Assembly: GCA_046262275.1 (NCBI GenBank)
Contig: JBHENA010000001.1
Span: 1 to 44,168 of the forward strand
From: Chthoniobacterales bacterium
Lineage (GTDB): Bacteria; Verrucomicrobiota; Verrucomicrobiia; Chthoniobacterales; UBA10450
Direction of reading: 5' to 3'
DNA: 44,168 nucleotides
Numbering within the stretch: the first letter of the stretch is position 1; each line of letters starts with the position of its first letter. Positions 24,074 through 40,571 of this stretch are shown one piece after another. Below the pieces are notes generated by a model, which ran no database searches, was not told the DNA's origin, and worked only from the letters and a program-made list of their open reading frames with translations. The position numbers and the translations under genes are program-made.

Positions 24074-25054
24074 TCAAACGCTGATAGCCTGCGCGCGGGT
24101 GATCTGATCATAGATCCATGCGTAGGTGCGCTCGATGCCATCCCGCAATCGGATCGATGGTTCCCAGCCGAGGTATCTTTTGATCAAAGTGTTGTCGCTA
24201 TTACGGCCGTTCACGCCTTTCGGCGCGCCAAGGTTGTAGCTCCGCTTCACTTTAATCCCGGCAAGTTCTTCCGCGAGATCCACCAGCTGATTGATGCTGA
24301 CGAGTTCGCTACTCCCGAGGTTGATCGGCTCAATGATATCGCTTTCCATGATCAGCTGCGTGCCCTTCACGCAATCGTCGATATACATGAAGCTCCTCGT
24401 CTGGTTCCCGTCGCCCCAGATTTCGATTTGGTTGCTTCCCGATAATTTCGCCTCGATCACCTTCCGGCAAATCGCTGCCGGCGCCTTCTCGCGGCCACCG
24501 GTGTAGGTCCCTTCAGGCCCGTACACATTGTGATACCGCGCGACGCGCGTAGTTAGTCCATAGTCCTCGCGAAAGTGGCGGCACATCCGTTCGCTGAACA
24601 ACTTCTCCCACCCGTACCCATCTTCGGCTAGGGCGGGGTAAGCATCCTCCTCTTTCAACGCGACGACATTCCGGTCCTTCTGCTTCTCCGCATTGTAAAC
24701 GCACGCGGAGGACGCGAAGAAGTAGCGGTCGATCCCGGCTTCCTGCGAGGACATGCACATGTGCGTGTTGATGAGAACCGAGAGCATGCAGAGAGCCTTG
24801 TTGTGTTCGATGAAGCCCATTCCGCCCATATTCGCCGCGAGGTTGTAGACGACATCCATGCCCGCGGCCGCATCCATGCAGGCCTCACGTAGATTGAGAT
24901 CAAGCTCCAGGTTCTCCACGTCTTCGAACCGCTGATACCATTCCTCCCTAGGCTTGATATCGACGGCACGGACAGTATTCCCCTGGCGTCGAAGATCCGC
25001 CACCAAATGGCCGCCGATGAAGCCGCCCGCTCCACAAACTAGGATCTGTTTCAT
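24074..25054 (-). CDS. GDP-mannose 3,5-epimerase-like extended SDR
   Basis: MKQILVCGAGGFIGGHL, NMGGMGFI, ASSACVY, YGWEKL, GGREKAPAAICRK, WGDGNQTRSF and VNGRNSDNTLIKRYLGWEP match my recollection of the conserved blocks of GME enzymes. I trimmed the start to ATG 25054. Confidence 0.8.
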   Translation of the reverse strand: MKQILVCGAGGFIGGHLVADLRRQGNTVRAVDIKPREEWYQRFEDVENLELDLNLREACMDAAAGMDVVYNLAANMGGMGFIEHNKALCMLSVLINTHMCMSSQEAGIDRYFFASSACVYNAEKQKDRNVVALKEEDAYPALAEDGYGWEKLFSERMCRHFREDYGLTTRVARYHNVYGPEGTYTGGREKAPAAICRKVIEAKLSGSNQIEIWGDGNQTRSFMYIDDCVKGTQLIMESDIIEPINLGSSELVSINQLVDLAEELAGIKVKRSYNLGAPKGVNGRNSDNTLIKRYLGWEPSIRLRDGIERTYAWIYDQITRAQAISV

Positions 25055-25210
25055 ACGATGTGCGACCGCCGGATGCTGAAAGCGTCCCAAAGCTCGGACG
25101 CAACCGATGCGCTGCGCCGATCATAGCACGCACAAATTCGTGCTGCCACCATGACTGGTGTAATTTGTTCCGGCCGCGTATGAATCTGCCGGCGCACGAC
25201 ATCAGCCTCC

Positions 25211-26857
25211 ATGATCGCCCTCCTCGAATTTTTTGCCGCGCGTCCGTCTCTGTTCTACCTCGTCGGGCTCGTGCCGCTTTTCGCCTCTGTTGCACTCGCT
25301 GCCGTGGGAGGATCGCTTTCGCGGGCAACACATCGGTTTGAATGTACGTTCCTGGCTGTCGCATCGGCCACCGTCGTGATCTGGCGCTGGCCGATGCTGC
25401 TGTGGCCGAATCCGTTGAATATTGACGAAGGCTACTTTACGGCTGGGGCCCTCAAAGCCACAGTTGATTTCGCGCCGTGGCGCGGATTCGACACTGCTAC
25501 GAGCGGACCGCTGAATGCGTATATTCTCGCGCTGCCGGCGTTGTTTGGCGCTCGAATCAGCTTGTTCTCCAGCCGCGTCATCGCGCTGTCCCTTGTGCTT
25601 GGGACGCTCGCGGCGTTTTACTACGCGGCGAAGTGGTCGTTCGGCGCGCGTACAGCACGACTCGCGCTCTTGCCGCCGCTGCTGTTTTTCGCGATTACCA
25701 CAGACCCGGAATTTGTCCACGCTTCCACCGAGCACCTCTCGATTTTCTTGAGCACAGTCGCTCTCGCGGCGGTCGCGTATCTCACTCACGCTGAAGCGAA
25801 CACGCGACGCATTGCGGCGTGCGTCGTCGGCGGACTGTGCCTTGGAAGCGCGGTCTTCGCCAAGCTTCAGGTAGCGCCAATCATACCCGCGATCTTTGCT
25901 GGTGCTGCCGTCGCTCTGTTCCTGGCGCGGAAAGCTCCCGGGGCGAAGCCGATTCGTGAAACCGGCGCTCTGCTGCTGTCGGCGAGCCTCGTCCCTGCGC
26001 TCATCGCGATCTCGCTCGCGGTGACCGGCGCATGGAACGATGCCGTGATCTCTTATCTCGGCTCGTCCTTGGCATTCATCGACCAAGGCAGGCCGGTCGG
26101 CTGGAGCTTCTTCTTCGACAACTCGCCATGGTACACCGCATTTCTCGTCGGTTCGCTCCTGGTCATAGTGGCAGGCGCTATGGCACTGATCGCCTACAGA
26201 CGTTTACCCGCCCGTTCTGTCGCGCTTGCATCAGGATCAGCCCTGCTCTTGCTCGCCGCCTTCGTGGCGATCTACCAACCTCACCGGCCCTGGCGGCATT
26301 ACTTGTTATTCTCGATCGTGCCAATCAGTTACTGCGTCGCGGCTGCCATCCGGCTGACGCGCGATGCGGGTTGGTGGAGCGGTCGCGAGCTGCGGCTGAC
26401 GCTGTTATCGATTGCGCTGTTCCTCGTTCCGACACTCATGATTGCGGGTGCGATCCCGCATCCCTTCTTACGCGCGCATCCGGTCGACGTTGCCCGGGCG
26501 CAGATAAAAGCCATTGCTCGTTACGCCTCTCCCGGCAGTCGCGTCGCGGTTTGGGGCTGGATGCCACATTACTACGTCGAGACAGAGACGATTCCGGCCA
26601 CACGAGAAGCGGAAACAATCCGTCAGATCGAGCCGGGGCCATACCGGGAATTCTTCCGGAGTCGCTTTTTGTCAGATCTGAAGGCGTCCATGCCGATCGT
26701 CTTCGTCGATGCCGTCGCGCCGGGCACATGGTATTTCAACAATCGGGCTACCCAGGGGCTCGAGACATTTCCCGAGCTTCACGCCTTCATCACAGCACAC
26801 TATGCCCTGAAGGAGGAGAGCGCTGGTGTCCGTATCTTCGTCCGCAACGCGCCGTGA
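25211..26857 (+). CDS. GT-C glycosyltransferase, ArnT/PMT-like (GT39/GT83-type), multi-pass membrane protein
   Basis: 548 aa with about 11 or more hydrophobic helices. The first-loop acidic motif is NIDEGYF, followed by TSGPLNAYILALPALFG. A soluble C-terminal domain is present. Confidence 0.7.
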   Translation: MIALLEFFAARPSLFYLVGLVPLFASVALAAVGGSLSRATHRFECTFLAVASATVVIWRWPMLLWPNPLNIDEGYFTAGALKATVDFAPWRGFDTATSGPLNAYILALPALFGARISLFSSRVIALSLVLGTLAAFYYAAKWSFGARTARLALLPPLLFFAITTDPEFVHASTEHLSIFLSTVALAAVAYLTHAEANTRRIAACVVGGLCLGSAVFAKLQVAPIIPAIFAGAAVALFLARKAPGAKPIRETGALLLSASLVPALIAISLAVTGAWNDAVISYLGSSLAFIDQGRPVGWSFFFDNSPWYTAFLVGSLLVIVAGAMALIAYRRLPARSVALASGSALLLLAAFVAIYQPHRPWRHYLLFSIVPISYCVAAAIRLTRDAGWWSGRELRLTLLSIALFLVPTLMIAGAIPHPFLRAHPVDVARAQIKAIARYASPGSRVAVWGWMPHYYVETETIPATREAETIRQIEPGPYREFFRSRFLSDLKASMPIVFVDAVAPGTWYFNNRATQGLETFPELHAFITAHYALKEESAGVRIFVRNAP

Positions 26858-26922
26858 TCTGTCGGCAGGTCGAGACCGCGCCGGCTTCGCTATTCAGTAT
26901 TGCTGGGGATGCGAGCAATCGT

Positions 26923-28083
26923 ATGATTGCGCGCAGCATGCCACCACAAGCGGCTACACCCGCGTCGGGCCCGAGTTCGTTCTGGAAGGAATCGCGCACC
27001 GACATCTGGCCGGTGCTTGTCGCGTTCGTCGCGTCGCGTGTGGTCATCGTGGGAGTGATGTTGCTGTCGCAGATGGTGATTCTGCGCGGCCGATTCTGGC
27101 GACCCGGCGGTCTGCTCGAAGTTCTGAGTAACTGGGACGGGGTCTACTATCTGCACATCGCCCGGCACGGTTACTTCTACATCCCCGAGATGTCGTCTAC
27201 GATCGTCTTCTTCCCGGTCTATCCGCTCGCCGTCCGCCTTTTCTCGTTTATCTTTCACGACTTCCGTGTCGCTGCCGTCGTGGTGGCGAACGTAGCGCTG
27301 CTGCTGGCGGCGCTGCTGCTCGAACGGCTGGTCAGGCAGGACTACGGCCGGCGGGTCAGCACGGCGGCGGTCGTGTTCCTCATGTTTAGCCCGGTGAGCT
27401 TTTTCTTCTCGAGCATGTACACCGAGTCGACCTTTCTCCTCTTTGCGGTAGCCGCTTTTTTTGCTGCAGTGAAGCGCCGGTGGCTGCTCGCATGCATCTG
27501 CGGATTGATCCTGTCGGCGACACGGAACATCGGATTTCTCATCGCCCTGCCGTTGTTCATCGAGCATCTGCGGCAAACGTGGAACCGCACGGCACCGATC
27601 TCGAGCCTGCTCCATCCACGCGTGTTGTTCATCGCGCTCGTTCCCGGCGGTCTCGGCTTGTATATGTTGTATGCGTACATCCGAGTGAATGACGCGCTAG
27701 CGTTCACGCGCTATCAGGCGCACTGGAATCGCAATCTCGTCTCGCCGCTGCATACGCTCACCCACTCCGGATGGCTGGAGCCGTTCTACTGGTGGCTCTT
27801 CAACGGAATTTTGGCGGTAGCTGCGATCCTGTGGGTGGCGGGCATCTTCTTCAGGGTGCGCGCGAGCTATCTGGTTTGGACAGCAATGCTGACGCTGAGC
27901 TACTTGTCCACGAACACGCTCGAAGCGCTGCCGCGATATCTCAGTATAGCGTTCCCATTGTTCATCGTTCTTGGGCTGATCAGCACGCGGTTATCAGCGG
28001 CTTACGAGTCTCTTCTGGCTGGATCGGTGGCGCTACTCACCATGTGCACAATCCTGTTCACGATGGGCTACTGGATGACCTGA
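26923..28083 (+). CDS. PIG-V/Gpi18-like GT-C mannosyltransferase-family membrane protein, paralogue A
   Basis: Motifs NWDGVYYLHIARHGY, FFPVYP, YTESTF and LEALPRYLSIAFPLF, in a multi-pass protein. The start is uncertain: ATG 26923 or 26938, or GTG 26854, which overlaps the previous stop. The upstream part of ORF 26032.. overlaps the preceding gene and I discard it. Confidence 0.8.
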   Translation: MIARSMPPQAATPASGPSSFWKESRTDIWPVLVAFVASRVVIVGVMLLSQMVILRGRFWRPGGLLEVLSNWDGVYYLHIARHGYFYIPEMSSTIVFFPVYPLAVRLFSFIFHDFRVAAVVVANVALLLAALLLERLVRQDYGRRVSTAAVVFLMFSPVSFFFSSMYTESTFLLFAVAAFFAAVKRRWLLACICGLILSATRNIGFLIALPLFIEHLRQTWNRTAPISSLLHPRVLFIALVPGGLGLYMLYAYIRVNDALAFTRYQAHWNRNLVSPLHTLTHSGWLEPFYWWLFNGILAVAAILWVAGIFFRVRASYLVWTAMLTLSYLSTNTLEALPRYLSIAFPLFIVLGLISTRLSAAYESLLAGSVALLTMCTILFTMGYWMT

Positions 28084-28685
28084 TGGTGTTGCATCCTGTA
28101 GACCACAAAGCTAAGCCATGCCACCGCAAGAGGTGCGCGGTCGCCGCCGCCTTTCTGTGCATGGCCGCGTGCCTCTCTGGCTGCGGCGAGGACCCTCCCG
28201 GCGATCCCCGGTCTTCTCTCACGCACGTGTACGTGTACGGCGAGACTGTGCGCTTCGGCCTGGGTGGCGATTCACATCGCTTTTGCACGACAGGCTGGAG
28301 TTTTAGCGAGCGCGGTTTCGTCTGGAACGACGGCCCGGCCGCTTCGCTGACGTTTTCGATCGCTCCCCCGCAGCCGCCGACAGATCTACTCCTCACGATA
28401 AAGCTGGGGCCGATGCTCGCGCCGCCGGATCTCGCTGTGCAGCCAGTTGATGTGTATGCGCATGGCGAGAAGGTGGCAAGTTGGCAAGTGACTGAAGAAG
28501 GCGTTTACACTGCCGAGATCCCGCAACACCTGACGATACGCGGCTATTTGAACATCGACCTGCACATGCCGAAAGCCATCGCGCCAGCGGAAGTGGGGCT
28601 CGGTTCAGATGCCCGACGACTTGCCATTCGTTGCTTCGAGTTGAAGCTCGATCTGGAGTCGAACGCGACCGCTCCCGCACCATAA
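28083..28685 (+). CDS. Lipoprotein, uncharacterised family, paralogue A
   Basis: The start ATG overlaps the PIG-V-A stop (TGATG). The signal peptide carries lipobox CLSGC. Shared domain blocks are GWSFSERGFVWNDG, QPVDVYAHGEKVASWQV and PKAIAPAEVGLGSDARRLAI. Confidence 0.7.
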   Translation: MVLHPVDHKAKPCHRKRCAVAAAFLCMAACLSGCGEDPPGDPRSSLTHVYVYGETVRFGLGGDSHRFCTTGWSFSERGFVWNDGPAASLTFSIAPPQPPTDLLLTIKLGPMLAPPDLAVQPVDVYAHGEKVASWQVTEEGVYTAEIPQHLTIRGYLNIDLHMPKAIAPAEVGLGSDARRLAIRCFELKLDLESNATAPAP

Positions 28686-28788: not shown

Positions 28789-29964
28789 CTACGGCTCCCC
28801 CATGTTCCCGAGAAACAGCTCCATCTCCACAAAGCAGGATGCGGCGGCGATGGATGCTACGACAACGCAGGCTAGCCTTGGCCTGTTCTTCAGCACATCG
28901 GCCATCATGATGTAGATGGGTAGGAGCACCGAGACATACCGTGTCCAGCCAAACGGACGATGCAGATAGACGATCAGTGAGAAATTGAACAAGGCGATAT
29001 AGAACATCTCCATGTAGCGCTTCTTGACCGCGCAATAGACGATCGCGATGATCGACAACCAGAAGGCGATCGTCTCAATGCGCCAGGAGAACGCCAGGTA
29101 TGTGAAGACCCACACCTTCGGGTTCGTTCCCGCCGCGACGTGCGTCTCAATAAGCTCCCGCACCCATCCAGCCCCGGCGGCGGACTGGCTCGTGCCCATC
29201 ACTGCCAGCGCGACGTGCCAGCTCGCAGCAACGAGAAGACCGCTCGAGGTAGCGAGCAATGGCCGCCAGTGAATTCGGCGGTCGCGGAGACAGTAGAACA
29301 CCTGCTCGACGAACAGTGCCGCGACCAGGAATGTTCCCATCATCCGCACCAACGCAGAGACTCCGGCAATAACGCTCCCCCACCCGATCCGCTCTTTCTG
29401 ACGCAGAACGAACGCAACCGCAGTTAGTGCTACGTAATAAGACTCTGAGTAGGCGGCGAAAAAGACGTTGTGCCCGGGATAAAAGAAGAGGAGGAACACT
29501 ACGAGCCATGGGGCTACTCCTTTCAGGCGGGCGTCATTCTTAACGTAGACAGTGAGCGCCCACGCTATCACCAAGTGGCTAATCAGGTTTAACACGACCG
29601 CGCTCTTTTCGAACGCATCTGGCGGACCGAACCGGAAGATCCCGGTCACTAGCCGCAGCGTGTATGGGTAAAGTGGCGGCCAGACGAAGAGGTCGAAGTG
29701 TTCGTAGAGCCGCCGGTAGATTGTGCCGTCCCAGCCTTGGTAGAGATAGGCAGGGAACCAGCGGAAGGGGCGCAGCAGTTCCGGAATCTTGCCTGCGCCA
29801 AACAGCGCGCAGAAAACGTATTGAATCGTATAGACGGCGGTGACCGTGACGACCCAGTCGGGCACCCGAAAAGGTGGTAGCCGCTCGCGCGTCTGATCTA
29901 ACAAAGCTTGTGCTTTCACATCGAAACGTCTGACCGCGTTCGCTTCACGCAGTCGACGCGCCAC
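28789..29964 (-). CDS. Divergent PIG-V-like GT-C membrane protein, paralogue E
   Basis: Motifs YQGWDGTIYRRLYEHF, WPPLYPY, AAYSESYY and GWTRYVSVLLPIY, in a multi-pass protein. It is the last gene of the minus-strand GT2 / STELLO-like / SDR operon. Confidence 0.7.
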   Translation of the reverse strand: MARRLREANAVRRFDVKAQALLDQTRERLPPFRVPDWVVTVTAVYTIQYVFCALFGAGKIPELLRPFRWFPAYLYQGWDGTIYRRLYEHFDLFVWPPLYPYTLRLVTGIFRFGPPDAFEKSAVVLNLISHLVIAWALTVYVKNDARLKGVAPWLVVFLLFFYPGHNVFFAAYSESYYVALTAVAFVLRQKERIGWGSVIAGVSALVRMMGTFLVAALFVEQVFYCLRDRRIHWRPLLATSSGLLVAASWHVALAVMGTSQSAAGAGWVRELIETHVAAGTNPKVWVFTYLAFSWRIETIAFWLSIIAIVYCAVKKRYMEMFYIALFNFSLIVYLHRPFGWTRYVSVLLPIYIMMADVLKNRPRLACVVVASIAAASCFVEMELFLGNMGEP

Positions 29965-30039: not shown

Positions 30040-31032
30040 CTACGCGCCGGCTACTCGGCTGCGGTAGTACTCGATCGCCCGTTCGATGCCCTCGCGGAAA
30101 TCGACCTTGTAGGTGAACCCGAGGCTCTTCTGCTTCGTCATATCGCCACCGCGCGCGAACACGCCTTCGGGTTTGTTTGACGTACCCACGACTTCCGGCG
30201 AGTAGCCGCACGCTTCAGCGGCCATTTTGGCGAATTGTTTGAAGCTGGTGAAGATGCCGGTCGACAAGTTGATGGCTTTCGCGTCGTCGATCTTTTCCAT
30301 CGTCTGCAACACGCCATCGATGCAGTCCTCGATATGGATGAAGTCGCGCATCTGATCGCCGGTGCCCCAGACGGTTAAGAGAGACTTGTCTTGGTTGCTT
30401 AAAGCCCGCTTACAAATGCTCGGGAAAGGATAAGTGTCGTCCTGGTCCTCGCCATAACCAGAGAACGGCCGATACACCACTGACTTCAACCCGTGCTTCT
30501 CGTATGCGAGCTGCGCGAGATATTCGTGCGTCAGCTTCGCCCAGCCGTAAGACATGTCCGGCATACCGATGTCATCGGTAAACTCAATCATCTCTTCTTT
30601 CAGCAGGATGTAGTCATCCTTCCGCTGATACCGGATCGGGTAAGCAGCGCTCGAACTGAAACAGATCGTTCGCTTCGGCTCCGCCCGGACCGCCCAAGCC
30701 CAGAATTCAGAGTCGATCGACAGATCCTCGGCGACCGCCAGCGGATTCTGTTCGATGACGAGACGGCCACCGACGACTGCCGCCAAATGGAAGGCAATAT
30801 CGAAATCCTTGTCGGCAACACGTTTGAAATAGTGCCGGCAATCTTCGCCGTGGAAGTGAAAGTTTTTGTAATCGCGCGGCTCGTAGAGCGGCCACTTGCT
30901 ATCCGGAGAAATCCCACCGGTGAGCGGCTCGATATTGTCCACGCAATGGACCTCGTCGCGCGCGTCGAGCAGACGCTTCACAAGGTGTCGGCCAACGAAA
31001 CCGGCGCCTCCCGTGACGAGTACTTTACGCAT
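30040..31032 (-). CDS. NAD-dependent sugar-nucleotide epimerase/dehydratase (extended SDR)
   Basis: MRKVLVTGGAGFVGRHL (the GxxGxxG motif), SSSAAY and the catalytic YGWAKL (YxxxK). It has an 8-nt overlap with the upstream gene. Confidence 0.85.
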   Translation of the reverse strand: MRKVLVTGGAGFVGRHLVKRLLDARDEVHCVDNIEPLTGGISPDSKWPLYEPRDYKNFHFHGEDCRHYFKRVADKDFDIAFHLAAVVGGRLVIEQNPLAVAEDLSIDSEFWAWAVRAEPKRTICFSSSAAYPIRYQRKDDYILLKEEMIEFTDDIGMPDMSYGWAKLTHEYLAQLAYEKHGLKSVVYRPFSGYGEDQDDTYPFPSICKRALSNQDKSLLTVWGTGDQMRDFIHIEDCIDGVLQTMEKIDDAKAINLSTGIFTSFKQFAKMAAEACGYSPEVVGTSNKPEGVFARGGDMTKQKSLGFTYKVDFREGIERAIEYYRSRVAGA

Positions 31033-31945
31033 TTGTGAAATGTTTCTGATAGAGCCGGAAGGCCTCTACTGAGCGCTCCGGCAGGTAGTTCAGAATCTTG
31101 TCGGGATCTTCGACGAGTTCCGCCACGATCTTGTGGTTGTGTTCATACCCGAGGTACTCGGCCTTCATGTCCTTGGTAAGATCATGCACGTTGCGCTGCT
31201 GATACACTGATGCTTTTCCGAACACGACCTTGCGGCCTTTCGCCTGCACGTAGAATGCTGCCCAGATGTCATCCATCCGGCCGACGTGCGGATAAAGGAA
31301 GTAATCTTTCAAGACGCTTCCGGCCAAAAAGGTATTCTGCGAGTTGAAGGGCGACATCTTGTTCGCCGCAATCGGGAAACAACTCTCGTCGAACTTGCAT
31401 TCGGGTGCGTGCTCCATCCGGCAGAACGCGTCGATGTCCGGATCGCCATCCCAGAAATCCGCCTGAACGTCAGGACGAATGGTCTTCTTGCTCTTCCGCG
31501 AGTAGTCGCGTTTCGACAGCATCGTGAGCGGAAACCCACGGTGCCACAGTTTCCCGTGGTTCGTCGCGCCGACAGGATCGAACACGGGAAGATCGGTCTC
31601 GTAATAGTTGGTCTCTACGTCTTTTCCGATCACGAGATCTTTTCCCCAGCCTTCGTAAGGAATGTTGTCGTCATCCACTGCGGCGACGATGTCCGCCCCC
31701 ATGTCATGCGCCCAGAGCAGGCCGAAGTTCCGCCGCTGGATGCAATTCCAGCCAATCGCATCGGAAAGCTCCTTGTCGTAATCCTCCTGCATTTCCGGGG
31801 TAACGTAGATTCCGCGGTCGAGCTGATAATCCGGGGGCGTCTTCTTATCGCCGATCACGACGAGATCCCAGTCCTCGAAGGTCTGGAAGCGCGCCATCGC
31901 GTCGGTGATGGGATTGATAGTGGTAGTGACGATGACTTTTTTCAT
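31025..31945 (-). CDS. STELLO/DUF288-like glycosyltransferase
   Basis: KKVIVTTTINPITDAMARF...DWDLVVIGDKKTPPDY...RRNFGLLWAHDMGADIVAAVDDDNIP follows the layout I recall for the DUF288 (STELLO) family. That layout is IV.S...PT, a K.W..VV.GD.KTP block, then a DDD acidic motif. The coding call is strong; the family call is moderate. Confidence 0.6.
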   Translation of the reverse strand: MKKVIVTTTINPITDAMARFQTFEDWDLVVIGDKKTPPDYQLDRGIYVTPEMQEDYDKELSDAIGWNCIQRRNFGLLWAHDMGADIVAAVDDDNIPYEGWGKDLVIGKDVETNYYETDLPVFDPVGATNHGKLWHRGFPLTMLSKRDYSRKSKKTIRPDVQADFWDGDPDIDAFCRMEHAPECKFDESCFPIAANKMSPFNSQNTFLAGSVLKDYFLYPHVGRMDDIWAAFYVQAKGRKVVFGKASVYQQRNVHDLTKDMKAEYLGYEHNHKIVAELVEDPDKILNYLPERSVEAFRLYQKHFTNA

Positions 31946-32664: not shown

Positions 32665-32808
32665 GCGCCTATGATTCCACGGTTGAGCAGATTCACCACG
32701 AATTTTTTCGGCCCGCTGCGAGCCGCCGGCCGTCGCATTTATTCCACCGCTTTTTCTTAGGACAAGATCTTCTGCTCGCCTCGAATCGCCTCCGGTGGTG
32801 GAGTCTGG

Positions 32809-34264: not shown

Positions 34265-34837
34265 ATGTCACCAATTCGGGAGCGACTCCTTATGGTATGT
34301 GCGATTCCCCTGCTAGGTACAGCATTGCTTGTTGCGGGATGTGGGCAGGACGATCCGGCAGCGATCGAGGCTGCAAGGCCTCCGAGCAGCGTGTATGAAT
34401 ATAACGAGAAAATCAGCTTCGCACGCCACGGCAAGGCGCTGCGCCATCTCCTGACGGGATGGTCGTGGACGGAAGATCAATGGACATGGACGGAAGGTCT
34501 TGTAGCCGCTCTGGCCTTGCGCGTCGGCCCTGCTTCCGGTGGCCTGACACTGAACGTCAGAATGAGTGGCTTATTGCATCCGCCCGAGCTGACGGTTCAG
34601 CCAGTGCAAGTGCTCCTAAACGGCACGAAGATTACGGACTGGGAAGTAACGGATTTGAAGACCTACTCGGTCGCTATCCCATCTGAATTGCTTCCGACAG
34701 AGCCGACTGACTGGGTCATCGACTTCCTCGTGCCGAAGGCGACTTCTCCGGCGCACTTCATCCCCGGCGCTGACTCTCGCCGGCTTGCACTTCAGGTGTG
34801 GGATCTCACGATCTCCACCGCGCCGACGCCGCGATGA
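34265..34837 (+). CDS. Lipoprotein, uncharacterised family, paralogue B
   Basis: Lipobox LVAGC. Blocks GWSWTEDQWTWTEG, QPVQVLLNGTKITDWEV and PKATSPAHFIPGADSRRLAL. Its stop overlaps the next start (ATGA). Confidence 0.75.
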   Translation: MSPIRERLLMVCAIPLLGTALLVAGCGQDDPAAIEAARPPSSVYEYNEKISFARHGKALRHLLTGWSWTEDQWTWTEGLVAALALRVGPASGGLTLNVRMSGLLHPPELTVQPVQVLLNGTKITDWEVTDLKTYSVAIPSELLPTEPTDWVIDFLVPKATSPAHFIPGADSRRLALQVWDLTISTAPTPR

Positions 34838-36033
34838 CGAAATCGCAAATCAGCGTGCCCGTAAGCACCGTTTCGATCCCGTTGATCAACTCGGAAGGCG
34901 TGGAGCCGCCGGTTCGAAGCGGCGGCACCGCCCGGCTCTTCGTGCGTGAGAGCATCCCGGTCGTCCTTGCCTTTTTGGCGTCGCGACTGCTCATCTACGG
35001 CCTTATTCTACTCTCGCGGCTCATCGTCCTTCCAAGCTCACGCAGTTTTGACGGCGGCTTTCTAACCGTTCTCGTGCAACGTGAGGGAGTATCCTACTTC
35101 GACATCGCGAGGACCGGCTATGGCGCAGCCGCGCACGCTGCCCCGACGCTTGATTTTTTTCCCCTTTACCCGCTGCTCGTCCGCGGTGTCTCGCTCGTGT
35201 TCCGAAACTTCGCTGTTGCGAGTGTGGTCACAGCGAACCTCGCGCTCTTCGTCGCAGGACTTTTGCTGCACCGACTTCTGCGCAAAGAATACACAAACCC
35301 AAAAATCGCGCGGGCGGGGGTGTGGTTCCTGATGTTCACCCCCGGTTGTCTGTTCTTCTCTGTTGGGTACTCCGAGTCGACCTTCCTCGCACTGGCGCTT
35401 GGCAGTTTGCTGGCGGCAATGAACAGGCAGTGGCTGCTCGCGTCTGTTTGTGGCATGGCTTTGGCCGCAACGCGCAGTTTCGGAGTGCTGATCCTGTTTC
35501 CGCTCGCAATCGAATTTCTGTGGTCGGATCGGCAAGCGCATCGTGCGATCGATGCGCTGCTCCGGCCGCGGAATCTGCTGCTTGCGCTCATCCCGACCGG
35601 CCTCGCCGCGGTGGTGGCATTCGGGTATGCGAAGTACCACAACCTGCTGGCTGCTTCTGAGGCGCTCAAGATTTGGGGACCCGGGTTCCGTTCCCCAGTG
35701 GCGGCTTTTGCGGATGGCCATCGCGGTGCACCGACGTTTGCCTGGCTTTTTGGTGGCGTCGTCGTCACCAGCACGCTTATGCTAGCTGCAGGATGTTGGC
35801 TGAAGATGCGAGCCAGCCATATCGCCTACGCTCTTATTTTGCTGGCAGTCTCATTATTCTTCAGCGGTTTCGAAGCGATTCCGCGGACGATCTGTTTGAT
35901 TTTTCCGCTTTACGCCGCCGCTGGTATGCTGTCCGTCCGGAGCAGGTGGTTGTATGAGCCGCTGCTGGCGGCGAGCGTGGTGGTGCTCAGCATGTTGACG
36001 GTGCTCTGGGCGAATGGGTATTGGATTCCTTAG
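34834..36033 (+). CDS. PIG-V/Gpi18-like GT-C membrane protein, paralogue C
   Basis: Motifs FFPLYP, YSESTF and FEAIPRT. The first-loop motif reads QREGVSYFDIARTGY, so the WD of the other paralogues is RE here. I trimmed the start to ATG 34834. Confidence 0.8.
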   Translation: MTKSQISVPVSTVSIPLINSEGVEPPVRSGGTARLFVRESIPVVLAFLASRLLIYGLILLSRLIVLPSSRSFDGGFLTVLVQREGVSYFDIARTGYGAAAHAAPTLDFFPLYPLLVRGVSLVFRNFAVASVVTANLALFVAGLLLHRLLRKEYTNPKIARAGVWFLMFTPGCLFFSVGYSESTFLALALGSLLAAMNRQWLLASVCGMALAATRSFGVLILFPLAIEFLWSDRQAHRAIDALLRPRNLLLALIPTGLAAVVAFGYAKYHNLLAASEALKIWGPGFRSPVAAFADGHRGAPTFAWLFGGVVVTSTLMLAAGCWLKMRASHIAYALILLAVSLFFSGFEAIPRTICLIFPLYAAAGMLSVRSRWLYEPLLAASVVVLSMLTVLWANGYWIP

Positions 36034-36107
36034 GAGTTGCGCAGTCATTGTTGCCGCAGCTTTGGAGAACCTTGACTGGCGACGCTCGCACAGCGATTGA
36101 GTTCGCT

Positions 36108-36803
36108 ATGGCAGATTTTGTCGAGGCCGATCTCCGGAAGCTGAGCGTCACGGCAGGGTTAGCCGTTACTGTTTGCGCAGTTGCAATCCCGCTCATGCTC
36201 AGCGGATGTGGCAAAGGGAATAGCAACACCGCCCAACGTGCGGAGCCGACGCCGGACTCGCCCGTCTCACGCCAATCTGCGGCCTCTGCGCAGACTCCCG
36301 CTGGTGCTTCGCCCTCGGCTGCACAGCAGCCGCAAGGCGGTCCGCAAACACGTGCAACAAGCGGTCAGCGGGTTGAATACGACACTTTGATCGAGTTCAC
36401 CGAGGGGGGGAACTCTGACGCGCTGAAGGTCTCCGGCTGGAGCATTGCGGAAGCGGGATTTACGTGGACGGAAGGAACAGCGGCGATGCTGTCGCTGCGC
36501 GTGCCGCCCGCCGACAGCCCAGTGACCTTAAAAATGAAAGCTGCGGGAAGCATCAAGGAACCCGAAGTGCCGTTTCAGCCAGTTGAGATTGACATCAACG
36601 ACGAGAAGATCGCGGACCTGCAGGTAGGAAACACTGCGGAGTTCAGTGTCCCCGTTCCCGAGCACCTAACGAAAAGCGGCGGCGTCCTGACGATCGCTCT
36701 CCGGACACCGAAAGCGGCTTCGCCGAAGGATCTCGGGCTGAACGAAGATGCGCGCGTGCTGGGGATTCGGGTGTTCAACATCGCACTCTCGACGGTTCAG
36801 TAG
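36108..36803 (+). CDS. Lipoprotein, uncharacterised family, paralogue C (with a long low-complexity linker)
   Basis: Lipobox MLSGC. A ~50-aa Pro/Ser/Ala/Gln/Thr-rich linker follows, then GWSIAEAGFTWTEG, QPVEIDINDEKIADLQV and PKAASPKDLGLNEDARVLGI. I trimmed the start to ATG 36108. Confidence 0.7.
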   Translation: MADFVEADLRKLSVTAGLAVTVCAVAIPLMLSGCGKGNSNTAQRAEPTPDSPVSRQSAASAQTPAGASPSAAQQPQGGPQTRATSGQRVEYDTLIEFTEGGNSDALKVSGWSIAEAGFTWTEGTAAMLSLRVPPADSPVTLKMKAAGSIKEPEVPFQPVEIDINDEKIADLQVGNTAEFSVPVPEHLTKSGGVLTIALRTPKAASPKDLGLNEDARVLGIRVFNIALSTVQ

Positions 36804-36957: not shown

Positions 36958-37530
36958 ATGGATCGGAGCCGGAAAAAGACTGGCGATGAACCTCGACTGA
37001 CTACGGCGGGCGCGCGGTTGTTCGCCGCCACAAGCGTCGTGTTGGTTCTTTCGGCCTGCGATCGCACGACCTTCGCCACGCGGCCGGAAAGCTCCCGAGG
37101 CGCAGATTACGTCTACGGCACCGTCATCGGTTTTGGTACAGCGGACGGGTTCAAGGTCTCGGGCTGGAGCCGACCCGAACAGCAATCCACTTGGAGTGAG
37201 GGCAACAAGGCCGTGCTGGCGTTAAACTTGCCGCCGAGCGAAAACGGACGGGTCGATCTCGTCGCGACCATGTCCGCCTACACTCACCCGCCTGCGCTGA
37301 CGTCGCAGCCGGTGGAAGTCTACGCGAACGAACAGAAAATTGCTGACTGGGTGGTGAGCGATCTTGCAGAATTTAGCGTCGGCCTCCCGGACACTGTCGC
37401 AAGAAAAGGCGGGACTGTGCTTCTCTCACTTCAGCTTCCAAAGGCAGCTTCCCCAAAAAGCTTTGGTGACGGCGAAGACTCGCGCATCCTTGGGATCTGC
37501 ATGCGCAATTTCCGGCTGGTGCGTCGCTAG
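36958..37530 (+). CDS. Lipoprotein, uncharacterised family, paralogue C2 (no GT-C immediately upstream)
   Basis: Lipobox VLSAC. Blocks GWSRPEQQSTWSEG, QPVEVYANEQKIADWVV and PKAASPKSFGDGEDSRILGI. Confidence 0.75.
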   Translation: MDRSRKKTGDEPRLTTAGARLFAATSVVLVLSACDRTTFATRPESSRGADYVYGTVIGFGTADGFKVSGWSRPEQQSTWSEGNKAVLALNLPPSENGRVDLVATMSAYTHPPALTSQPVEVYANEQKIADWVVSDLAEFSVGLPDTVARKGGTVLLSLQLPKAASPKSFGDGEDSRILGICMRNFRLVRR

Positions 37531-37562
37531 CGGCCGGGCAGGCGGACACGGCACAGCACGCA

Positions 37563-38765
37563 ATGAAGAAGCCTCGGGTCGCGTTCATCGTGCAGCGTTG
37601 CGGCGTCGAAGTTAATGGCGGCGCTGAGGCGCACTGTCTGCAGATCGCGCAGCGGATGGCGCGCCACTGGGACACTGAAGTCCTGACCACCTGCGCATTG
37701 GATTACATGACGTGGGAGAACTCGTATCCCGCCGGCCTCGAAGAAATCGGAGGGACGATAGTGCGGCGGTTTCCGGTGGATCAACCGCGGGACGTCACGC
37801 ACTTCGACGAGCTTTCCGCCAGGCTCCGCGGACGGGGGGTAGCGGCAACACAGTCCGAGCAGGAAGAATGGATGCAGGCGCAAGGGCCAATCAGCTCGGG
37901 TTTGCTGGACTATTTAGGCGCACATCGCGGTGAATACGACGCCTTCATTTTCTTCGGCTATCTTTACGCGACGACGTATTTCGGTTTGCCCCTCGTTCAG
38001 GAGAAGGCATTCCTTGCGCCGCTCGCGCACGACGAATGGACGATTTACCTCAGCATGTGGGACAGCTTCTTCGCTCGTCCGCGCGCGCTGATTTTCAACA
38101 CTTCCTTCGAGAAGGAATTCCTCCGGCGTCGCCTCCCCTCGCTCTCTCTCGAAGGGCCAGTGGTCGCCGTTGGAATCGAGCCGCCCGCTGACTTTGCGCC
38201 GGAACTATTTCGAGCGCGCTACGGACTTGATGATCCGTTTCTGCTCTACGTCGGGCGAATCGACGAATCGAAAGGCTGCCGTTGGCTGATCGAAAACTTT
38301 GTTCGCGCGCGGAACGCCGGGCGGATTCAGCACAAGCTGGTGCTTGCTGGGACTGAAGTGATGCCGATTCCGTTCCACGACGACGTCATTCACCTCGGGT
38401 TCATCGATGAGGCGCAGAAATGGAGTGCGATGGCCGCATGTGATTGGCTCGTAATGCCTTCGCCGCACGAGAGCTTGTCGATGGTTCTGCTGGAAGCTTG
38501 GGGCGCCGGGCGACCGGCATTAGTGACTGGCGATGCAGAGGTTCTCGTCGGGCAGTGTCGGCGTGCGAACGCGGGGCTTTGGTATCGAAACTCGGAGGAA
38601 TTTGAGGCTATTCTGCGTACGATTGACGGCTCGACCAAGCAGCGGCTCGGCGCGCGGGGGCGGCAGTTTGTCGCGACGCATTATTCGTGGGAGCGCGTCG
38701 TGAACAACTACGCGGATCTATTCGAGGAGCAGGAAGCTATCCCCGTCTATAATCGCCGCGGCTGA
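37563..38765 (+). CDS. GT4-family glycosyltransferase
   Basis: PRVAFIVQRCGVEVNGGAEAHCLQIAQRMARHWDTEVLTT is paralogous to the N-terminal module of the 21629 gene. Also LLYVGRIDESKG and the EX7E-type block SPHESLSMVLLEAWGAGRPALV. Confidence 0.85.
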   Translation: MKKPRVAFIVQRCGVEVNGGAEAHCLQIAQRMARHWDTEVLTTCALDYMTWENSYPAGLEEIGGTIVRRFPVDQPRDVTHFDELSARLRGRGVAATQSEQEEWMQAQGPISSGLLDYLGAHRGEYDAFIFFGYLYATTYFGLPLVQEKAFLAPLAHDEWTIYLSMWDSFFARPRALIFNTSFEKEFLRRRLPSLSLEGPVVAVGIEPPADFAPELFRARYGLDDPFLLYVGRIDESKGCRWLIENFVRARNAGRIQHKLVLAGTEVMPIPFHDDVIHLGFIDEAQKWSAMAACDWLVMPSPHESLSMVLLEAWGAGRPALVTGDAEVLVGQCRRANAGLWYRNSEEFEAILRTIDGSTKQRLGARGRQFVATHYSWERVVNNYADLFEEQEAIPVYNRRG

Positions 38766-39504
38766 GGTGTTTCTCCAGCCAGATGTAGAGGCAGATAAAC
38801 AGGTAGCGGCTGCCCATTTCCTTGATCTTCAGTTTCGGCGCACCGGTCACTCGATTGCGGTAGGTATTCGGCATGCTGGTCCAGCGATAGCCACGGACGA
38901 TCGCCTTCAGCGGTAGCTCGACGGTGAGATTGAAATGCGGCGAGATGAGCGGTCGGCAGCCGTCGATGGTGGTGCGACGATAGGCTTTAAACGCGTTCGT
39001 TAGATCGTTATGGCGAATGCCGAACAACAGTTGGAGGAACAGGTTTGCCATGCGATTCAGCAGGAGCTTGAAGCGAGGGTAATCGATGACACCGCCCCCT
39101 TTCATGAAGCGGCTGCCGAAGACGCAATCGTAGCCTTCGTTCAGGATTCGCCAGAAACGCACGACGTCGCGCGGATCGTCCGACTCGTCAGCCATCATGA
39201 TGACGACGGCATCGCCAGTCATGTGGTTCAGACCCCAAATGATTGCGCGCCCGAAACCGTGCGCATCGGTGTTTTGCGTCGGAGCAAGTGTCGGAACGCG
39301 GTCACGAAGCTCTTCTATGATGGCCCAGGTGCGATCGCTGCTTCCGTCATCCACAACGACAATCTCATGCGGCACTTTCTGCAGCCGCAGTTCGGTGTGG
39401 AGATGTTCTACCGTTGACGCGATGCAGCCTTCTTCATCGCGTGCCGGTATCACGATGGACAACAGCGAAAGCGGCGGAGCGCTCCGATCGGGCCGCTGCT
39501 TCAT
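38737..39504 (-). CDS. GT2 polyprenyl-phosphate glycosyltransferase (Dpm1/ArnC/GtrB-like) with a C-terminal TM segment
   Basis: LSIVIPARDEE, IVVVDDGSSD, MMADESDDP, CVFGSRF and the C-terminal hydrophobic stretch YLFICLYIWL. I trimmed the start to ATG 39504, which overlaps the upstream stop (ATGA). The 3' end overlaps the convergent GT4 gene by 29 nt. Confidence 0.85.
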   Translation of the reverse strand: MKQRPDRSAPPLSLLSIVIPARDEEGCIASTVEHLHTELRLQKVPHEIVVVDDGSSDRTWAIIEELRDRVPTLAPTQNTDAHGFGRAIIWGLNHMTGDAVVIMMADESDDPRDVVRFWRILNEGYDCVFGSRFMKGGGVIDYPRFKLLLNRMANLFLQLLFGIRHNDLTNAFKAYRRTTIDGCRPLISPHFNLTVELPLKAIVRGYRWTSMPNTYRNRVTGAPKLKIKEMGSRYLFICLYIWLEKHLSRGDYRRG

Positions 39505-40571
39505 AGCGGAGAGGAAAGATCGAGCCACTCCGGATGCTGCTCCGCATGCACAGCGATCTCGTCGAGGATAGCGTCAAGCGACATCGTCGGCCGCCAATCC
39601 CACTCTGCTTCGGCGCGTCGCGAATCCATCACGACCCACGGGAGATCGAAAGGTCTTGGCGCCGGATCAGCGCCGATGCTGTGCGCTCCGAAACGCGCCG
39701 CGCACCAGTCGCTCAGCTGCGCGAGTGACATCGCGTTTGTAGCGCGGCCGCCGAAGTTCAAAATCCGTGGCTTTGCCGCGAACGGCTCCCGCATTTGCCT
39801 TAGCAACAGCGGAACGAGGTCCCGCGGATGCAGCGCGTCGCGCACCTGGAATCCTCGGCCGCCGAAGCCGATGTATTTCAACGGGCGTCGACGCAGGTAA
39901 GCGTTGATCCAGAAGGCGAAAATACCCTGGTCAGCGCGACCAAACTGACCCGCGCCGGCCAGCACCCCGCAGCGGTTAACCCAAACTGGAAAATCGAAGG
40001 TTTCGCCGTACTCGAGCGCGAGAGCCTCAGACGCGAGTTTGGTGCTGCCGTAGAGCGAAACCGGCGCTGCGGTGGAGAATTCTTCCCGGATGCCGTGAGA
40101 TGAAATGCCCGGAGGCAGACTGCTGTTAGTTACCGGCTGAAAAGCGCCGTGCAGTTCTTCAACATGCAATGTCGCAAGGGGCGCAATGGCGTAAACGCGG
40201 CTCGTACTGAGCAGAATGCAACCGGCACGATCACGCTTTGCGAGCTCGAGAATATTGACGGTCCCATAGAGATTGTGCTCGATGAGCTGCCTACTACTCG
40301 TGAGGCCGTCGACGCCCGCGAGCACGCTCGGATTCGCCGCGGCATCAACGATCCAATCGACGTGCGGTAGCGTTTCCATGTCACTCGCCGCTCGGATGTC
40401 GGCGTGGAAAAGCTTCACGCCGCGTTTCCGCAGCGGCTCCCGCGTGAGTTCGCTACCGGGCCGGATAAAGTTGTCGAACCCTACAATCTCGATGGTCGAA
40501 TCAGCGTCCAGAAGCGCGTGTGCGACCGTGCTTCCGACAAAACCGCAAATACCCGAAACAAGCAGCTTCAC
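39501..40571 (-). CDS. NAD-dependent sugar-nucleotide epimerase (extended SDR, CDP-paratose/tyvelose 2-epimerase-like)
   Basis: KLLVSGICGFVGS, STSRVY and YGSTKL (YxxxK). The block ADQGIFAFWINAYLRRRPLKYIGFGGRGFQVRDALHPRDL resembles the RfbE-type epimerase block as I recall it. Start is GTG 40571 (MKLLVSG) or TTG 40580. Confidence 0.8.
   Translation of the reverse strand: MKLLVSGICGFVGSTVAHALLDADSTIEIVGFDNFIRPGSELTREPLRKRGVKLFHADIRAASDMETLPHVDWIVDAAANPSVLAGVDGLTSSRQLIEHNLYGTVNILELAKRDRAGCILLSTSRVYAIAPLATLHVEELHGAFQPVTNSSLPPGISSHGIREEFSTAAPVSLYGSTKLASEALALEYGETFDFPVWVNRCGVLAGAGQFGRADQGIFAFWINAYLRRRPLKYIGFGGRGFQVRDALHPRDLVPLLLRQMREPFAAKPRILNFGGRATNAMSLAQLSDWCAARFGAHSIGADPAPRPFDLPWVVMDSRRAEAEWDWRPTMSLDAILDEIAVHAEQHPEWLDLSSPL

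Follow-up and report, generated by a model that had tools for sequence, protein, structure and literature searches.

An envelope-glycosylation cluster with two putative sugar-donor modules in a Chthoniobacterales genome

Gene content of the cluster

We analyzed a stretch of 44,168 nucleotides from the genome of a Chthoniobacterales bacterium (assembly GCA_046262275.1, contig JBHENA010000001.1, positions 1 to 44,168; hereafter the window) for genes that may supply lipid-linked sugars to membrane-embedded glycosyltransferases of the GT-C class. The interval from 21.6 to 42.6 kb is best read as a single envelope-glycosylation cluster of a Chthoniobacterales/Spartobacteria-type verrucomicrobium, containing two separately conserved cytoplasmic modules for donor supply (Table 1). 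The cluster begins with a double GT4 gene (21629), ends with the final lipoprotein gene (42601) and is bordered by housekeeping genes, with isocitrate dehydrogenase and DUF1989 upstream on the left and NAD synthase on the right. The isocitrate dehydrogenase had its relatives, up to 86% identical, in Verrucomicrobiota of the Spartobacteria/Chthoniobacterales/Udaeobacter type. The first module comprises three consecutive genes, GT2a > GT75-like > SDR2 (hereafter the trio), which encode a family 2 glycosyltransferase (GT2), a GT75-related protein and an extended short-chain dehydrogenase/reductase (SDR), together with SDR1, a GDP-mannose 3,5-epimerase (GME) encoded elsewhere in the cluster. The second module consists of SDR3 and GT2b. 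Six polytopic proteins (GTC_A to GTC_F) and five lipoproteins are encoded in the same interval.

The open reading frames (ORFs) described in an earlier note on this DNA were found at their positions, and all three start/stop overlaps could be read directly on the minus strand. The stop of SDR3 and the start of GT2b share ATGA (39504-39501), the stop of GT2a and the start of the GT75-like gene share ATGA (31945-31942), and the stop of the GT75-like gene and the start of SDR2 share ATGCGTAA (31032-31025). Overlaps of this sort are routine in bacterial operons and, taken alone, would not stand out statistically; they indicate co-transcription and no more. It is the conserved gene order across genomes, rather than the overlaps, that goes beyond chance.

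Table 1. Genes of the glycosylation cluster, with window coordinates and the basis of each assignment
Feature	Coordinates	Strand	Basis and remarks
Double-domain GT4 (GT-B) glycosyltransferase, 780 aa	21629..23971	+	Pfam Glycos_transf_1 123.8 bits, two stretches; left cluster edge
SDR1, GDP-mannose 3,5-epimerase (GME) family	24074..25054	-	PDB GME matches, catalytic residues kept
GTC_A, polytopic, 548 aa, ~11 predicted transmembrane segments, candidate GT-C	25211..26857	+	Transmembrane segment count
GTC_B, PIG-V-like GT-C	26923..28083	+	Pfam Mannosyl_trans2 (PIG-V) 46.4 bits, cutoff 22.4; 10 transmembrane segments
Lipoprotein paralogue 1, lipobox LSGC	28083..28685	+	Start overlaps GTC_B stop (TGATG)
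GTC_C, polytopic membrane protein	28789..29964	-	BLAST link to PIG-V-like paralogues; 6 transmembrane segments (crude scale)
SDR2, extended SDR, GME paralogue	30040..31032	-	Third trio gene; GME acid/base pair absent
GT75-related protein ("STELLO-like" gene), 306 aa	31025..31945	-	MtdL match; middle trio gene
GT2a, small GT2, no transmembrane segments	31942..32664	-	Pfam GT2 47.9 bits; first trio gene
GTC_D, PIG-V-like GT-C	32809..34146	+	Pfam PIG-V 19.8 bits, slightly under cutoff; family BLAST link
Lipoprotein paralogue 2, lipobox VAGC	34265..34837	+	
GTC_E, PIG-V-like GT-C	34834..36033	+	Pfam PIG-V 22.3 bits, cutoff 22.4; family BLAST link
Lipoprotein paralogue 3, lipobox LSGC, Pro/Ser/Ala-rich linker	36021..36803	+	Start uncertain: TTG 36021 or ATG 36108
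Lipoprotein paralogue 4, lipobox LSAC	36958..37530	+	
GT4b, GT-B glycosyltransferase, 400 aa	37563..38765	+	Pfam Glyco_trans_1_4 55 bits
GT2b, Dpm1/DPMS-like GT2, no transmembrane segments	38737..39504	-	Pfam GT2 80.1 bits; second gene of conserved pair
SDR3, CDP-tyvelose 2-epimerase-like extended SDR	39501..40571	-	TyvE PDB matches; coupled to GT2b
GTC_F, GT-C	40775..42019	+	Pfam PMT_2 30.2 bits (cutoff 26.1), PIG-V 27.8 bits (cutoff 22.4)
Lipoprotein paralogue 5, lipobox LIGC	42035..42601	+	Right cluster edge; NAD synthase next

SDR1 belongs to the GDP-mannose 3,5-epimerase family

All three SDRs match the Pfam Epimerase/GDP_Man_Dehyd models (140 bits for SDR1 with Epimerase), and each was assigned to a family by the score gaps against solved structures. 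By these scores, none of the three is an ordinary GalE or RmlB. SDR1 matched the plant GMEs (PDB 8sg0 and 2c59) with 310 bits (E ~1e-91, ~55% identity), compared with only 94 bits for the next-best family. The hallmarks of extended SDRs (GAGGFIG, SSAC, YGWEK) are present, and the full-length alignment with the Arabidopsis enzyme AtGME (2c59) keeps SSAC (Cys145), YGWEK (Tyr174 and Lys178) and GGREKAPAA (Lys217). Both members of the acid/base pair for C3/C5 epimerisation, Cys145 and Lys217, are thereby retained. By family, SDR1 is a genuine GME, as the earlier note had recognized, and its predicted reaction is the interconversion of GDP-D-mannose with GDP-L-galactose (GDP-L-Gal) and GDP-L-gulose (GDP-L-Gul).

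Another verrucomicrobial GME, MfGM35E from Methylacidiphilum fumariolicum, is active in vitro and has the same catalytic residues as SDR1 (PMC6678494). No pathway context is described for MfGM35E, whereas the window supplies one for SDR1.

The middle gene of the trio encodes a relative of the mutase MtdL

The GT75-like protein had no match at normal thresholds in Pfam or NCBIfam, the Pfam RGP family included, and in a Pfam search opened to E <= 10 the STELLO model was hit below its threshold (E 0.014; 14.6 bits against a cutoff of 27.8). When solved structures were searched with the single sequence, MtdL alone was found (E 9e-14), and a family profile of 24 members, sampled down to 34% identity, matched MtdL over residues 4-283, nearly the full length (E 7e-37). 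The AlphaFold (AF2) model, with a pLDDT of 95.4, was closest in Foldseek to MtdL (TM-score 0.85), followed by rice UAM2 (OsUAM2; 0.65), and other GT-A folds scored at most 0.5; the model thus displays the GT-A-like fold of GT75. During synthesis of the antibiotic A201A, GDP-L-galactopyranose (GDP-L-Galp) is turned into GDP-L-galactofuranose (GDP-L-Galf) by MtdL, a GT75 enzyme (PMC9937993).

Most of the catalytic constellation of MtdL is conserved in the family, where the equivalents of T13, D40, R90, the first and third Asp of the DxD motif, R159, D195, Q229, R257, D260 and R289 are invariant or near-invariant. The glycosylated Arg essential for mutase activity, R159 (residue roles from PMC9937993), corresponds to R136 of the window protein and is invariant in the 24-sequence alignment. 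At the DxD and the sugar/diphosphate ligand positions, window residues D91, D93, D170/D172, Q203, R223, D226 and R251 show full or at least 90% conservation, and MtdL S228 aligns with a Ser. Across the family, Thr13 is kept and Asp never occurs at the Ser86 position, two features that, judged as in PMC9937993, point to a pocket for GDP rather than UDP.

The earlier note had called this gene STELLO-like. Direct support from Pfam is weak, but the label is defensible, because a 1162-aa relative with 30% identity carries a strong STELLO domain and STELLO proteins are related to GT75 (PMC4906169); what it hides is the lead to the mutases. By homology, the middle trio gene encodes a relative of the NDP-pyranose mutases, and we put the chance that the protein itself is an NDP-pyranose/furanose mutase at about even. 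Since a mutase homologue is part of the trio, the sugar of the first module is predicted to be a furanose and not simply L-Galp or L-gulopyranose (L-Gulp).

The trio is conserved across phyla

Relatives of the GT75-like protein numbered more than 7,500, and the best 120 of these, from Gammaproteobacteria, cyanobacteria, Omnitrophota, Pirellulales and Chloroherpetonaceae, were all at least 70% identical and labelled hypothetical. After clustering at 50%, 2,360 representatives matched. A look-up for a sequence identical to the window protein gave no record. Such unusual conservation across phyla suggests strong constraint on the trio, its frequent horizontal transfer, or both.

We examined 45 loci from species-representative genomes and five contexts from metagenomes or metagenome-assembled genomes (MAGs). 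The trio order was found in Bacteroidota, Planctomycetota, Margulisiibacteriota, Saganbacteria, Lentisphaerota and Verrucomicrobiota, and also in Gammaproteobacteria, Actinomycetota and SAR11; the trio is conserved in at least ten phyla. Of 36 loci that could be evaluated for the upstream neighbour, 27 had GT2a immediately before the GT75-like gene. On the 3' side, SDR2 came next in 27 of 40 loci and GME in another five (together 32/40), and SDR2 orthologues were 51-74% identical across phyla. True GMEs that keep both Cys and Lys adjoined the GT75-like gene in six loci (L005, L103, L104, L109, L102 and L132). In L005, from a syntenic verrucomicrobial relative, the GT75-like protein is 85% identical to that of the window, the order is GT2a > GT75-like > GME, and PIG-V-like genes, lipoprotein genes and NAD synthase are also present. 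Because a GME adjoins the GT75-like gene in these six loci, the proposed link from GME to a lipid donor gains comparative support.

The trio is bordered by polytopic proteins in most phyla, among them clear PMT_2 GT-Cs (L091) and a DUF2142 membrane protein (L103). All-against-all clustering placed these trio-flanking membrane proteins in many unrelated families, so that the conserved unit is the trio and not its transferase. A constant trio with varied flanking proteins is the pattern expected of a donor module shared by diverse GT-Cs. Homology to GTC_C or GTC_A was also considered for the large membrane proteins that other phyla encode downstream of the trio, and it was rejected, as they proved not to be homologous.

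This conservation bears on a pyranose version of the proposal in the earlier note, in which GT2a or GT2b would load pyranosidic L-Gal or L-Gul straight from the GME products and the middle gene would be an accessory unrelated to ring form. The GME assignment in that proposal is secure, and both GT2s resemble DPMS, which itself uses a GDP-sugar. A plain pyranose nevertheless leaves unexplained why, in 27 of 36 loci, an MtdL homologue with an intact catalytic constellation lies between GT2a and an SDR, and why start/stop overlaps join it to both neighbours in the window. We therefore regard the pyranose version as quite improbable and prefer a furanosidic product, while the GME part of the proposal stands.

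Several loci depart from the common arrangement. In a Hyphomicrobiales/Nitratireductor subgroup of the GT75-like family (L113-L116, L127 and L131; 46-58% identity), no GT2a, SDR2 or GME lies nearby, so not every member works in the context of a trio. The GT2a orthologue of a Chloroherpetonaceae MAG (L001 5806-8004) was called as a 732-aa fusion with a Wzy_C-like polytopic domain, and in a sister MAG (L002 2715-4912) the same two parts are separate genes of 474 and 255 aa; the L001 case is either a real fusion or a frameshift. In L005 (12168-17500), SDR3, GT2b, GT4b and another SDR are split into short ORFs, probably through assembly frameshifts rather than as pseudogenes.

SDR2 is a divergent paralogue of GME

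SDR2 reached no NCBIfam cutoff. Its closest relative found was the GME of the window itself (29% identity, E 2e-32, 110 bits), ahead of its best solved relatives, Thermotoga maritima GalE (77 bits), MoeE5 (73 bits) and a UDP-glucuronic acid (UDP-GlcA) decarboxylase (54 bits). The GME-type motifs YGWxKL and PxGVxxRxxD are present. The acid/base pair is replaced in 11 of 11 aligned family sequences, Cys145 by Ala in FSSSAAYP and Lys217 by Tyr in DxxYPFPSIC, and without this pair SDR2 cannot epimerise C3 and C5 in the manner of a GME. From its sequence, SDR2 is a GME-derived paralogue or oxidoreductase and not a GME. The idea that SDR2 and GME are interchangeable isoenzymes was also considered and was rejected as unproven, given the missing pair in SDR2 and the presence of both genes in the window. 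The earlier proposal that both GT2s sit in operons with extended-SDR epimerases is borne out for the coupling, but not for SDR2 as an epimerase.

The solved relatives of SDR2 raise the question of whether the trio follows a plant-like route to UDP-L-arabinofuranose. SDR2 would then be a UDP-xylose 4-epimerase and the GT75-like protein an RGP/UAM-type UDP-L-arabinopyranose mutase, GT2a would form polyprenyl-phosphate-linked L-arabinofuranose (L-Araf), and GME would serve another glycosyltransferase of the cluster. The best solved-structure matches of SDR2 are indeed UDP-hexose/uronate 4-epimerases and a UDP-GlcA decarboxylase, the GT75-like model has rice UAM2 as its second-best match by fold, and most trio loci have no GME nearby. 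However, SDR2 is nearer to the window GME than to any 4-epimerase and shares GME-type motifs, and a GME takes the place of SDR2 at six loci. The positions at which Thr13 is kept and Asp86 never occurs are those that separate MtdL from active plant RGPs and have been linked to base selectivity (PMC9937993). Moreover, the window showed no gene for a UDP-glucose dehydrogenase or UXS. Taken together, we consider the L-Araf route unlikely and retain a GDP-L-Gal-derived furanose as the preferred product of the first module.

GT2a and GT2b resemble polyprenyl-phosphate glycosyltransferases

Both GT2s exceed the Pfam Glycos_transf_2 threshold. For GT2b, the PDB matches were Pyrococcus furiosus DPMS (PfDPMS; 2.5e-21), ArnC (~1e-12) and GtrB (~1e-7). 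For the names that NCBIfam ranked highest (PgfS, AglJ, Dol-P-hexose transferase and ArnC), the scores stayed far under the cutoffs. Its DxD-type motif region reads MADESDDP. For GT2a, the best PDB sequence match was DPMS (1.4e-5), and with a model of pLDDT 82, ranks 1-19 in Foldseek were all ArnC, DPMS or GtrB. The GT2a family has an SDLE motif with invariant D96 and E98, and its motifs TDMTYGFR and PxxWxxRxEGES are presumably of the DPMS/GtrB/ArnC kind. A GT2a orthologue also occurs in the culturable Luteolibacter yonseiensis. The likeness to polyprenyl-phosphate glycosyltransferases is thus clear for GT2b and lies at the fold level only for GT2a.

No transmembrane segments were predicted in either protein, and the C-terminal transmembrane helices of PfDPMS, GtrB and ArnC are absent; we read the C-terminal helices of GT2a and GT2b as amphipathic. 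Human-type DPM1 likewise has no transmembrane helices, so that their absence leaves polyprenyl-phosphate activity possible. The architecture of processive synthases is absent from both proteins. With DPMS, ArnC and GtrB as their nearest relatives, a role as polyprenyl-phosphate sugar synthases, which the earlier note had also suggested, is for both GT2s the function that we lean towards with some reserve.

SDR3 and GT2b form a second conserved pair

SDR3 aligned over residues 2-331 with residues 3-324 of the CDP-tyvelose 2-epimerase TyvE (PDB 1orr and 9rl0; E ~2.6e-19, ~73 bits). It keeps the full-length architecture including the beta-hairpin insertion, the Thr124/Tyr164/Lys168 triad (STSRVY, YGSTK), the Gly197-Trp207 loop with Gln205 (GAGQFGRADQG), and Arg237 and Arg299, with QVRD and the R-x-x-D motif aligned. 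SDR3 differs from TyvE/RfbE proteins such as TaTyvE (9RL0) in that the score is only ~73 bits, the gene is coupled to a DPMS-like GT2, and no 3,6-dideoxyhexose genes lie nearby. A further difference is family-wide, as the TyvE sequence TNK is replaced by TSR (Ser-Arg for Asn125-Lys126) in 118 of 120 SDR3 family members. In TaTyvE, Asn125 is essential (N125A is inactive) and Lys126 binds pyrophosphate (PMC13098431). SDR3 is accordingly placed by sequence in a sister family of TyvE, probably with NDP-sugar binding retained, and would be of the C2-epimerase type. Nothing connects SDR3 to L-sugars.

Among 77 evaluable loci of Verrucomicrobiota, Geobacterales, Nitrospirota, Acidobacteriota and Planctomycetota, 59 kept the order SDR3 > GT2b, and the pair is conserved in five or more phyla. 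Sometimes no GT-C lies near it. Distant GTC_A homologues (25-32% identity) occur close to the pair in other Verrucomicrobia; they adjoin it in L155 and L185 and lie upstream of it in L167. In L169 (Geobacter sp. OR-1), a GTC_A homologue adjoins SDR3, and no GT2b match was detected at that locus. GTC_A may be the cognate transferase for the GT2b product, perhaps representing an undescribed GT-C family.

Inversion at C2 via a 2-keto intermediate is also the chemistry by which decaprenyl-phosphoryl ribose (DPR) is converted to decaprenyl-phosphoryl-D-arabinofuranose (DPA). By analogy, SDR3 might act after GT2b and epimerise C2 of a sugar already linked to polyprenyl phosphate, as a one-enzyme analogue of mycobacterial DprE1/DprE2. 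TyvE-type enzymes do invert C2 via a 2-keto intermediate (PMC13098431), SDR3 and GT2b are tightly coupled, and the change from TNK to TSR runs through the family. Nevertheless, the residues that bind pyrophosphate in TaTyvE are kept (K126 as R, R237 and R299; PMC13098431), which makes action on a lipid-linked sugar unlikely. The loop residues Q199, F200, D204, Q205 and G206 are kept as well, no membrane-binding feature is present besides the Rossmann beta1 strand, and the gene order places the SDR first and the GT2 second. We judge this order of events highly improbable and take SDR3 to be an enzyme that would act on an NDP-sugar before GT2b.

The neighbours of SDR3 offer hints to its nucleotide-sugar substrate. 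In many genomes, a second extended SDR of 380-390 aa, 27-31% identical to SDR3, lies directly upstream of it (L135, L137, L145, L151, L159, L160, L164, L168 and others). In an Opitutaceae isolate (L157 9926-13193), the pair is followed by rmlD-, rmlB- and rmlA-like genes, two similar SDR genes follow the pair in L207 (10172-12110), and a YfhO-like GT-C lies upstream in L145 (Oryzomonas).

Candidate GT-C proteins and their paired lipoproteins

The six polytopic proteins of the window have 6-11 predicted transmembrane segments each. GTC_B to GTC_F form one BLAST-linked family, in which Pfam PIG-V and/or PMT_2 recognizes B and F above threshold and D and E at the border. GTC_C had no Pfam match at threshold and only a faint match to GT87, and GTC_A had no Pfam family match even at E 10. 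The six GT-C enzymes of the earlier note thus hold as six polytopic proteins; family models are clear for two and borderline for two, the BLAST relationship places GTC_C, and no family model covers GTC_A. GTC_C is the last gene downstream of the GT2a operon, and ATG at 26923 is the probable start of GTC_B. GTC_D probably starts later than 32809, as its first ~80 residues are not coding-like and the transmembrane core begins at about residue 87.

The five lipoprotein paralogues are ~190-260 aa long, each with a lipobox, and the others are 31-38% identical to the first. They share the invariant motifs GWS..E..W..G..A.L and D.R.L and have no Pfam match. Four of the genes lie directly downstream of a PIG-V-like GT-C gene, and the fourth paralogue (36958-37530) follows the third. 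Coupled junctions between GT-C and lipoprotein genes occur at 28081-28085 (TGATG) and at 34834-37, where the ATG of GTC_E overlaps the stop of lipoprotein 2 (ATGA). The same pairing is seen in L005. The lipoproteins could be acceptor substrates of the GT-Cs or periplasmic partner subunits.

A proposed pathway and its alternatives

The loci and their GT-C neighbours support the general picture, already drawn in the earlier note, of at least two distinct donor modules beside GT-C enzymes. The pathway that we propose builds on observed gene structure, family assignments, residue conservation and synteny; what each enzyme catalyses, to which lipid the sugars are attached, which sugars they are and in which ring form are predictions. 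In the first module, GME (SDR1) would make GDP-L-Gal from GDP-mannose, as expected of its family. The GT75-like protein would contract the ring to give a GDP-L-hexofuranose, as MtdL does, a step suggested by homology, the kept catalytic residues and the linkage to GME. SDR2 may modify the GDP-sugar at one centre, by redox chemistry or epimerisation, before or after ring contraction. GT2a, peripheral at the membrane, would move the L-hexofuranose to polyprenyl phosphate, as its fold and the GT-C neighbourhood suggest. In the second module, SDR3 would make a second NDP-sugar as an NDP-hexose C2-epimerase of the TyvE-like type, and the DPMS-like GT2b would load this product onto polyprenyl phosphate. 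After flipping, the five PIG-V-like GT-Cs and GTC_A could use both lipid-linked sugars in the periplasm.

For the proposal that two lipid-linked donor modules feed the GT-Cs, one of them probably furanosidic and derived from L-Gal, we see the balance as even. More specific versions are more tentative. It is possible, though doubtful, that the product of the first module is specifically a lipid-linked sugar of the L-galactofuranose (L-Galf) type. Equally speculative is the idea that the trio, with SDR2 or GME as its third gene, represents a widespread and unrecognized polyprenyl-phosphate-L-hexofuranose (L-Galf) pathway serving periplasmic GT-Cs.

Several observations count against the proposed pathway. 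No enzyme of the modules reached a curated NCBIfam cutoff (best scores of 63.6 bits for GT2b and 34.8 bits for GT2a, against equivalog cutoffs of 325-529). In the GT75-like protein, MtdL Asp87 is replaced by Ile69, with no Asp at this position in 24 of 24 aligned members, and the Mn2+ ligand His287 is replaced by Gln249; active plant UAMs, in which Ser occupies position 87, also lack this Asp (PMC9937993). STELLO-domain proteins are at least equally close to the family. The margin of GT2a over the soluble-acceptor enzyme GpgS is modest (TM-score 0.75 vs 0.66; E 3e-12 vs 8e-9), and the pathway offers no defined step for SDR2. In most trio loci a GME is absent from the surrounding 10 kb, so that perhaps only some lineages have the link to GDP-L-Gal. 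Finally, among the window ORFs examined, we found no flippase, priming phosphoglycosyl transferase or GDP-mannose supply gene.

Some of these points would fit a cluster that makes no lipid-linked monosaccharide donors at all. In that case, the GT75-like protein would be a true glycosyltransferase of the STELLO type, GT2a and GT2b would be ordinary cytoplasmic transferases extending a lipid-linked oligosaccharide or another acceptor, and the SDRs would supply NDP-sugars to the GT2s and GT4s. The strong STELLO domain of the 30%-identical relative speaks for this, as do the view that STELLO proteins are glycosyltransferases (PMC4906169), the loss of MtdL Asp87 and His287, the resemblance of GT2a to GpgS and other soluble-acceptor GT2s, and the lack of a transmembrane anchor in both GT2s. 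On the other hand, for both GT2s every top neighbour in structure or sequence is a polyprenyl-phosphate glycosyltransferase, DPM1 of the human type also lacks such an anchor, and the catalytic Arg of the mutases is invariant in the GT75-like family. The trio also lies beside GT-C proteins in distant phyla. Periplasmic GT-Cs depend on lipid-phosphate sugar donors, and the six GT-C-type proteins of the window would need one, for which no other candidate synthase was found. We regard a cluster without such donors as rather unlikely and favour the two-module pathway.

Comparison with known systems

Three-component periplasmic glycosylation combines a GT2 polyprenyl-phosphate-sugar synthase, a flippase and a GT-C, as in Dpm1/PMT/PIG-V, GtrB/GtrA/GtrX, ArnC/ArnT, CsbB/YfhO and the PgfS/PgfE/PgfM1/PgfM2 system of Streptococcus mutans. 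The GT2s of the window are nearest to DPMS, ArnC, GtrB and PgfS and are encoded beside multiple GT-Cs, and PgfE and ArnA provide parallels for an SDR in the same operon. The window differs in that its GT2s have no transmembrane helices, no GtrA-type flippase was found, and a GT75-type enzyme is encoded between GT2 and SDR. It also encodes six GT-C proteins along with five paired lipoproteins.

If our hypothesis holds, the first module would resemble the DPA system of Corynebacteriales, in which a lipid-phosphate furanose serves as donor for the GT-Cs Emb and Aft; L-Galf is the hexose homologue of D-arabinofuranose (D-Araf). The DPA route starts from phosphoribosyl pyrophosphate (pRpp) and uses a UbiA-type transferase, and DprE1/E2 then epimerise the lipid-bound sugar. 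The route proposed here is wholly different, and no homologues of the DPA enzymes are present in the window.

The closest parallel for the sugar itself is the A201A pathway of Marinactinospora thermotolerans, in which GDP-D-mannose is converted to GDP-L-Galp and then to GDP-L-Galf by a GME activity (GM35E; PMC6678494) and MtdL (PMC9937993; see also PMC8787198). Both systems link a GME-family SDR genomically to a GT75-fold protein with features of a GDP-type base pocket, and the DxD motif, Arg159, D195, Q229, R257, D260 and R289 are kept. The GT75-like protein is, however, only ~23% identical to MtdL, has Asp87 and His287 replaced, and is ~70 residues shorter, with a shorter C-terminal region. 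The genomic setting also differs: the gene stands beside a DPMS-like GT2 and GT-Cs in a cluster for a primary envelope glycan rather than for an antibiotic, it is present in at least ten phyla rather than a few actinomycetes, and SDR2 is an additional partner. Plant STELLO1/2 (DUF288) of the Golgi belong to the same superfamily and are connected to the window protein through its 30%-identical relative with the STELLO Pfam domain, whereas the window protein is soluble, has 306 aa and no transmembrane segment, and falls below the Pfam STELLO threshold.

The logic of GT2 lipid-sugar synthases and GT-Cs is already well known, and the pairing of GME with GT75 is known only from the actinomycete antibiotic pathway; we found no description of the two joined. 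Within the library of papers searched, we found no bacterial pathway of GT2, GT75 and GT-C, no lipid-linked L-Galf, and no characterisation of the GT2a, GT75-like or SDR2 families. To our knowledge, only a handful of bacterial lipid-phosphate donors are known (mannose, glucose, N-acetylglucosamine/N-acetylgalactosamine, 4-amino-4-deoxy-L-arabinose and D-Araf). We know of characterised bacterial GT75 mutases only in two antibiotic pathways, and of no known role for the sole characterised bacterial GME. The window and its relatives tie lipid-linked donors, GT75 and GME into one concrete and testable pathway. The core three-gene module is more than 70% identical between phyla, with thousands of metagenomic copies that are all labelled hypothetical, and its carriers include lineages that are abundant in the environment, such as SAR11 and soil Verrucomicrobia. 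If the proposed pathway is correct, it would extend the bacterial envelope repertoire by a new sugar and ring form, explain the purpose of bacterial GMEs and provide a function for a large orphan protein family. It would also be the first physiological role of a bacterial GT75 and a bacterial GME outside antibiotic synthesis.

Other features of the window

The divergent spacer of ~450 bp between the GT2a operon and GTC_D (32665-33110) contains only ORFs that look non-coding, and a GtrA-type flippase sought in the divergent region at 32.6-33.3 kb was not found. Outside the cluster, the window encodes a large autotransporter-type repeat protein with detected PATR repeats (3390-5492, plus strand), and a large protein with similar Gly/Thr/Ser repeats and a PEP-CTERM-like C-terminal sorting signal (PEPSTY...RRRR; 15495-18044, minus strand). 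Between these two lies a gene for a CarboxypepD_reg/TonB-type outer-membrane barrel (11424-14591). The repeat proteins and the barrel are typical verrucomicrobial surface machinery adjoining the glycosylation cluster.

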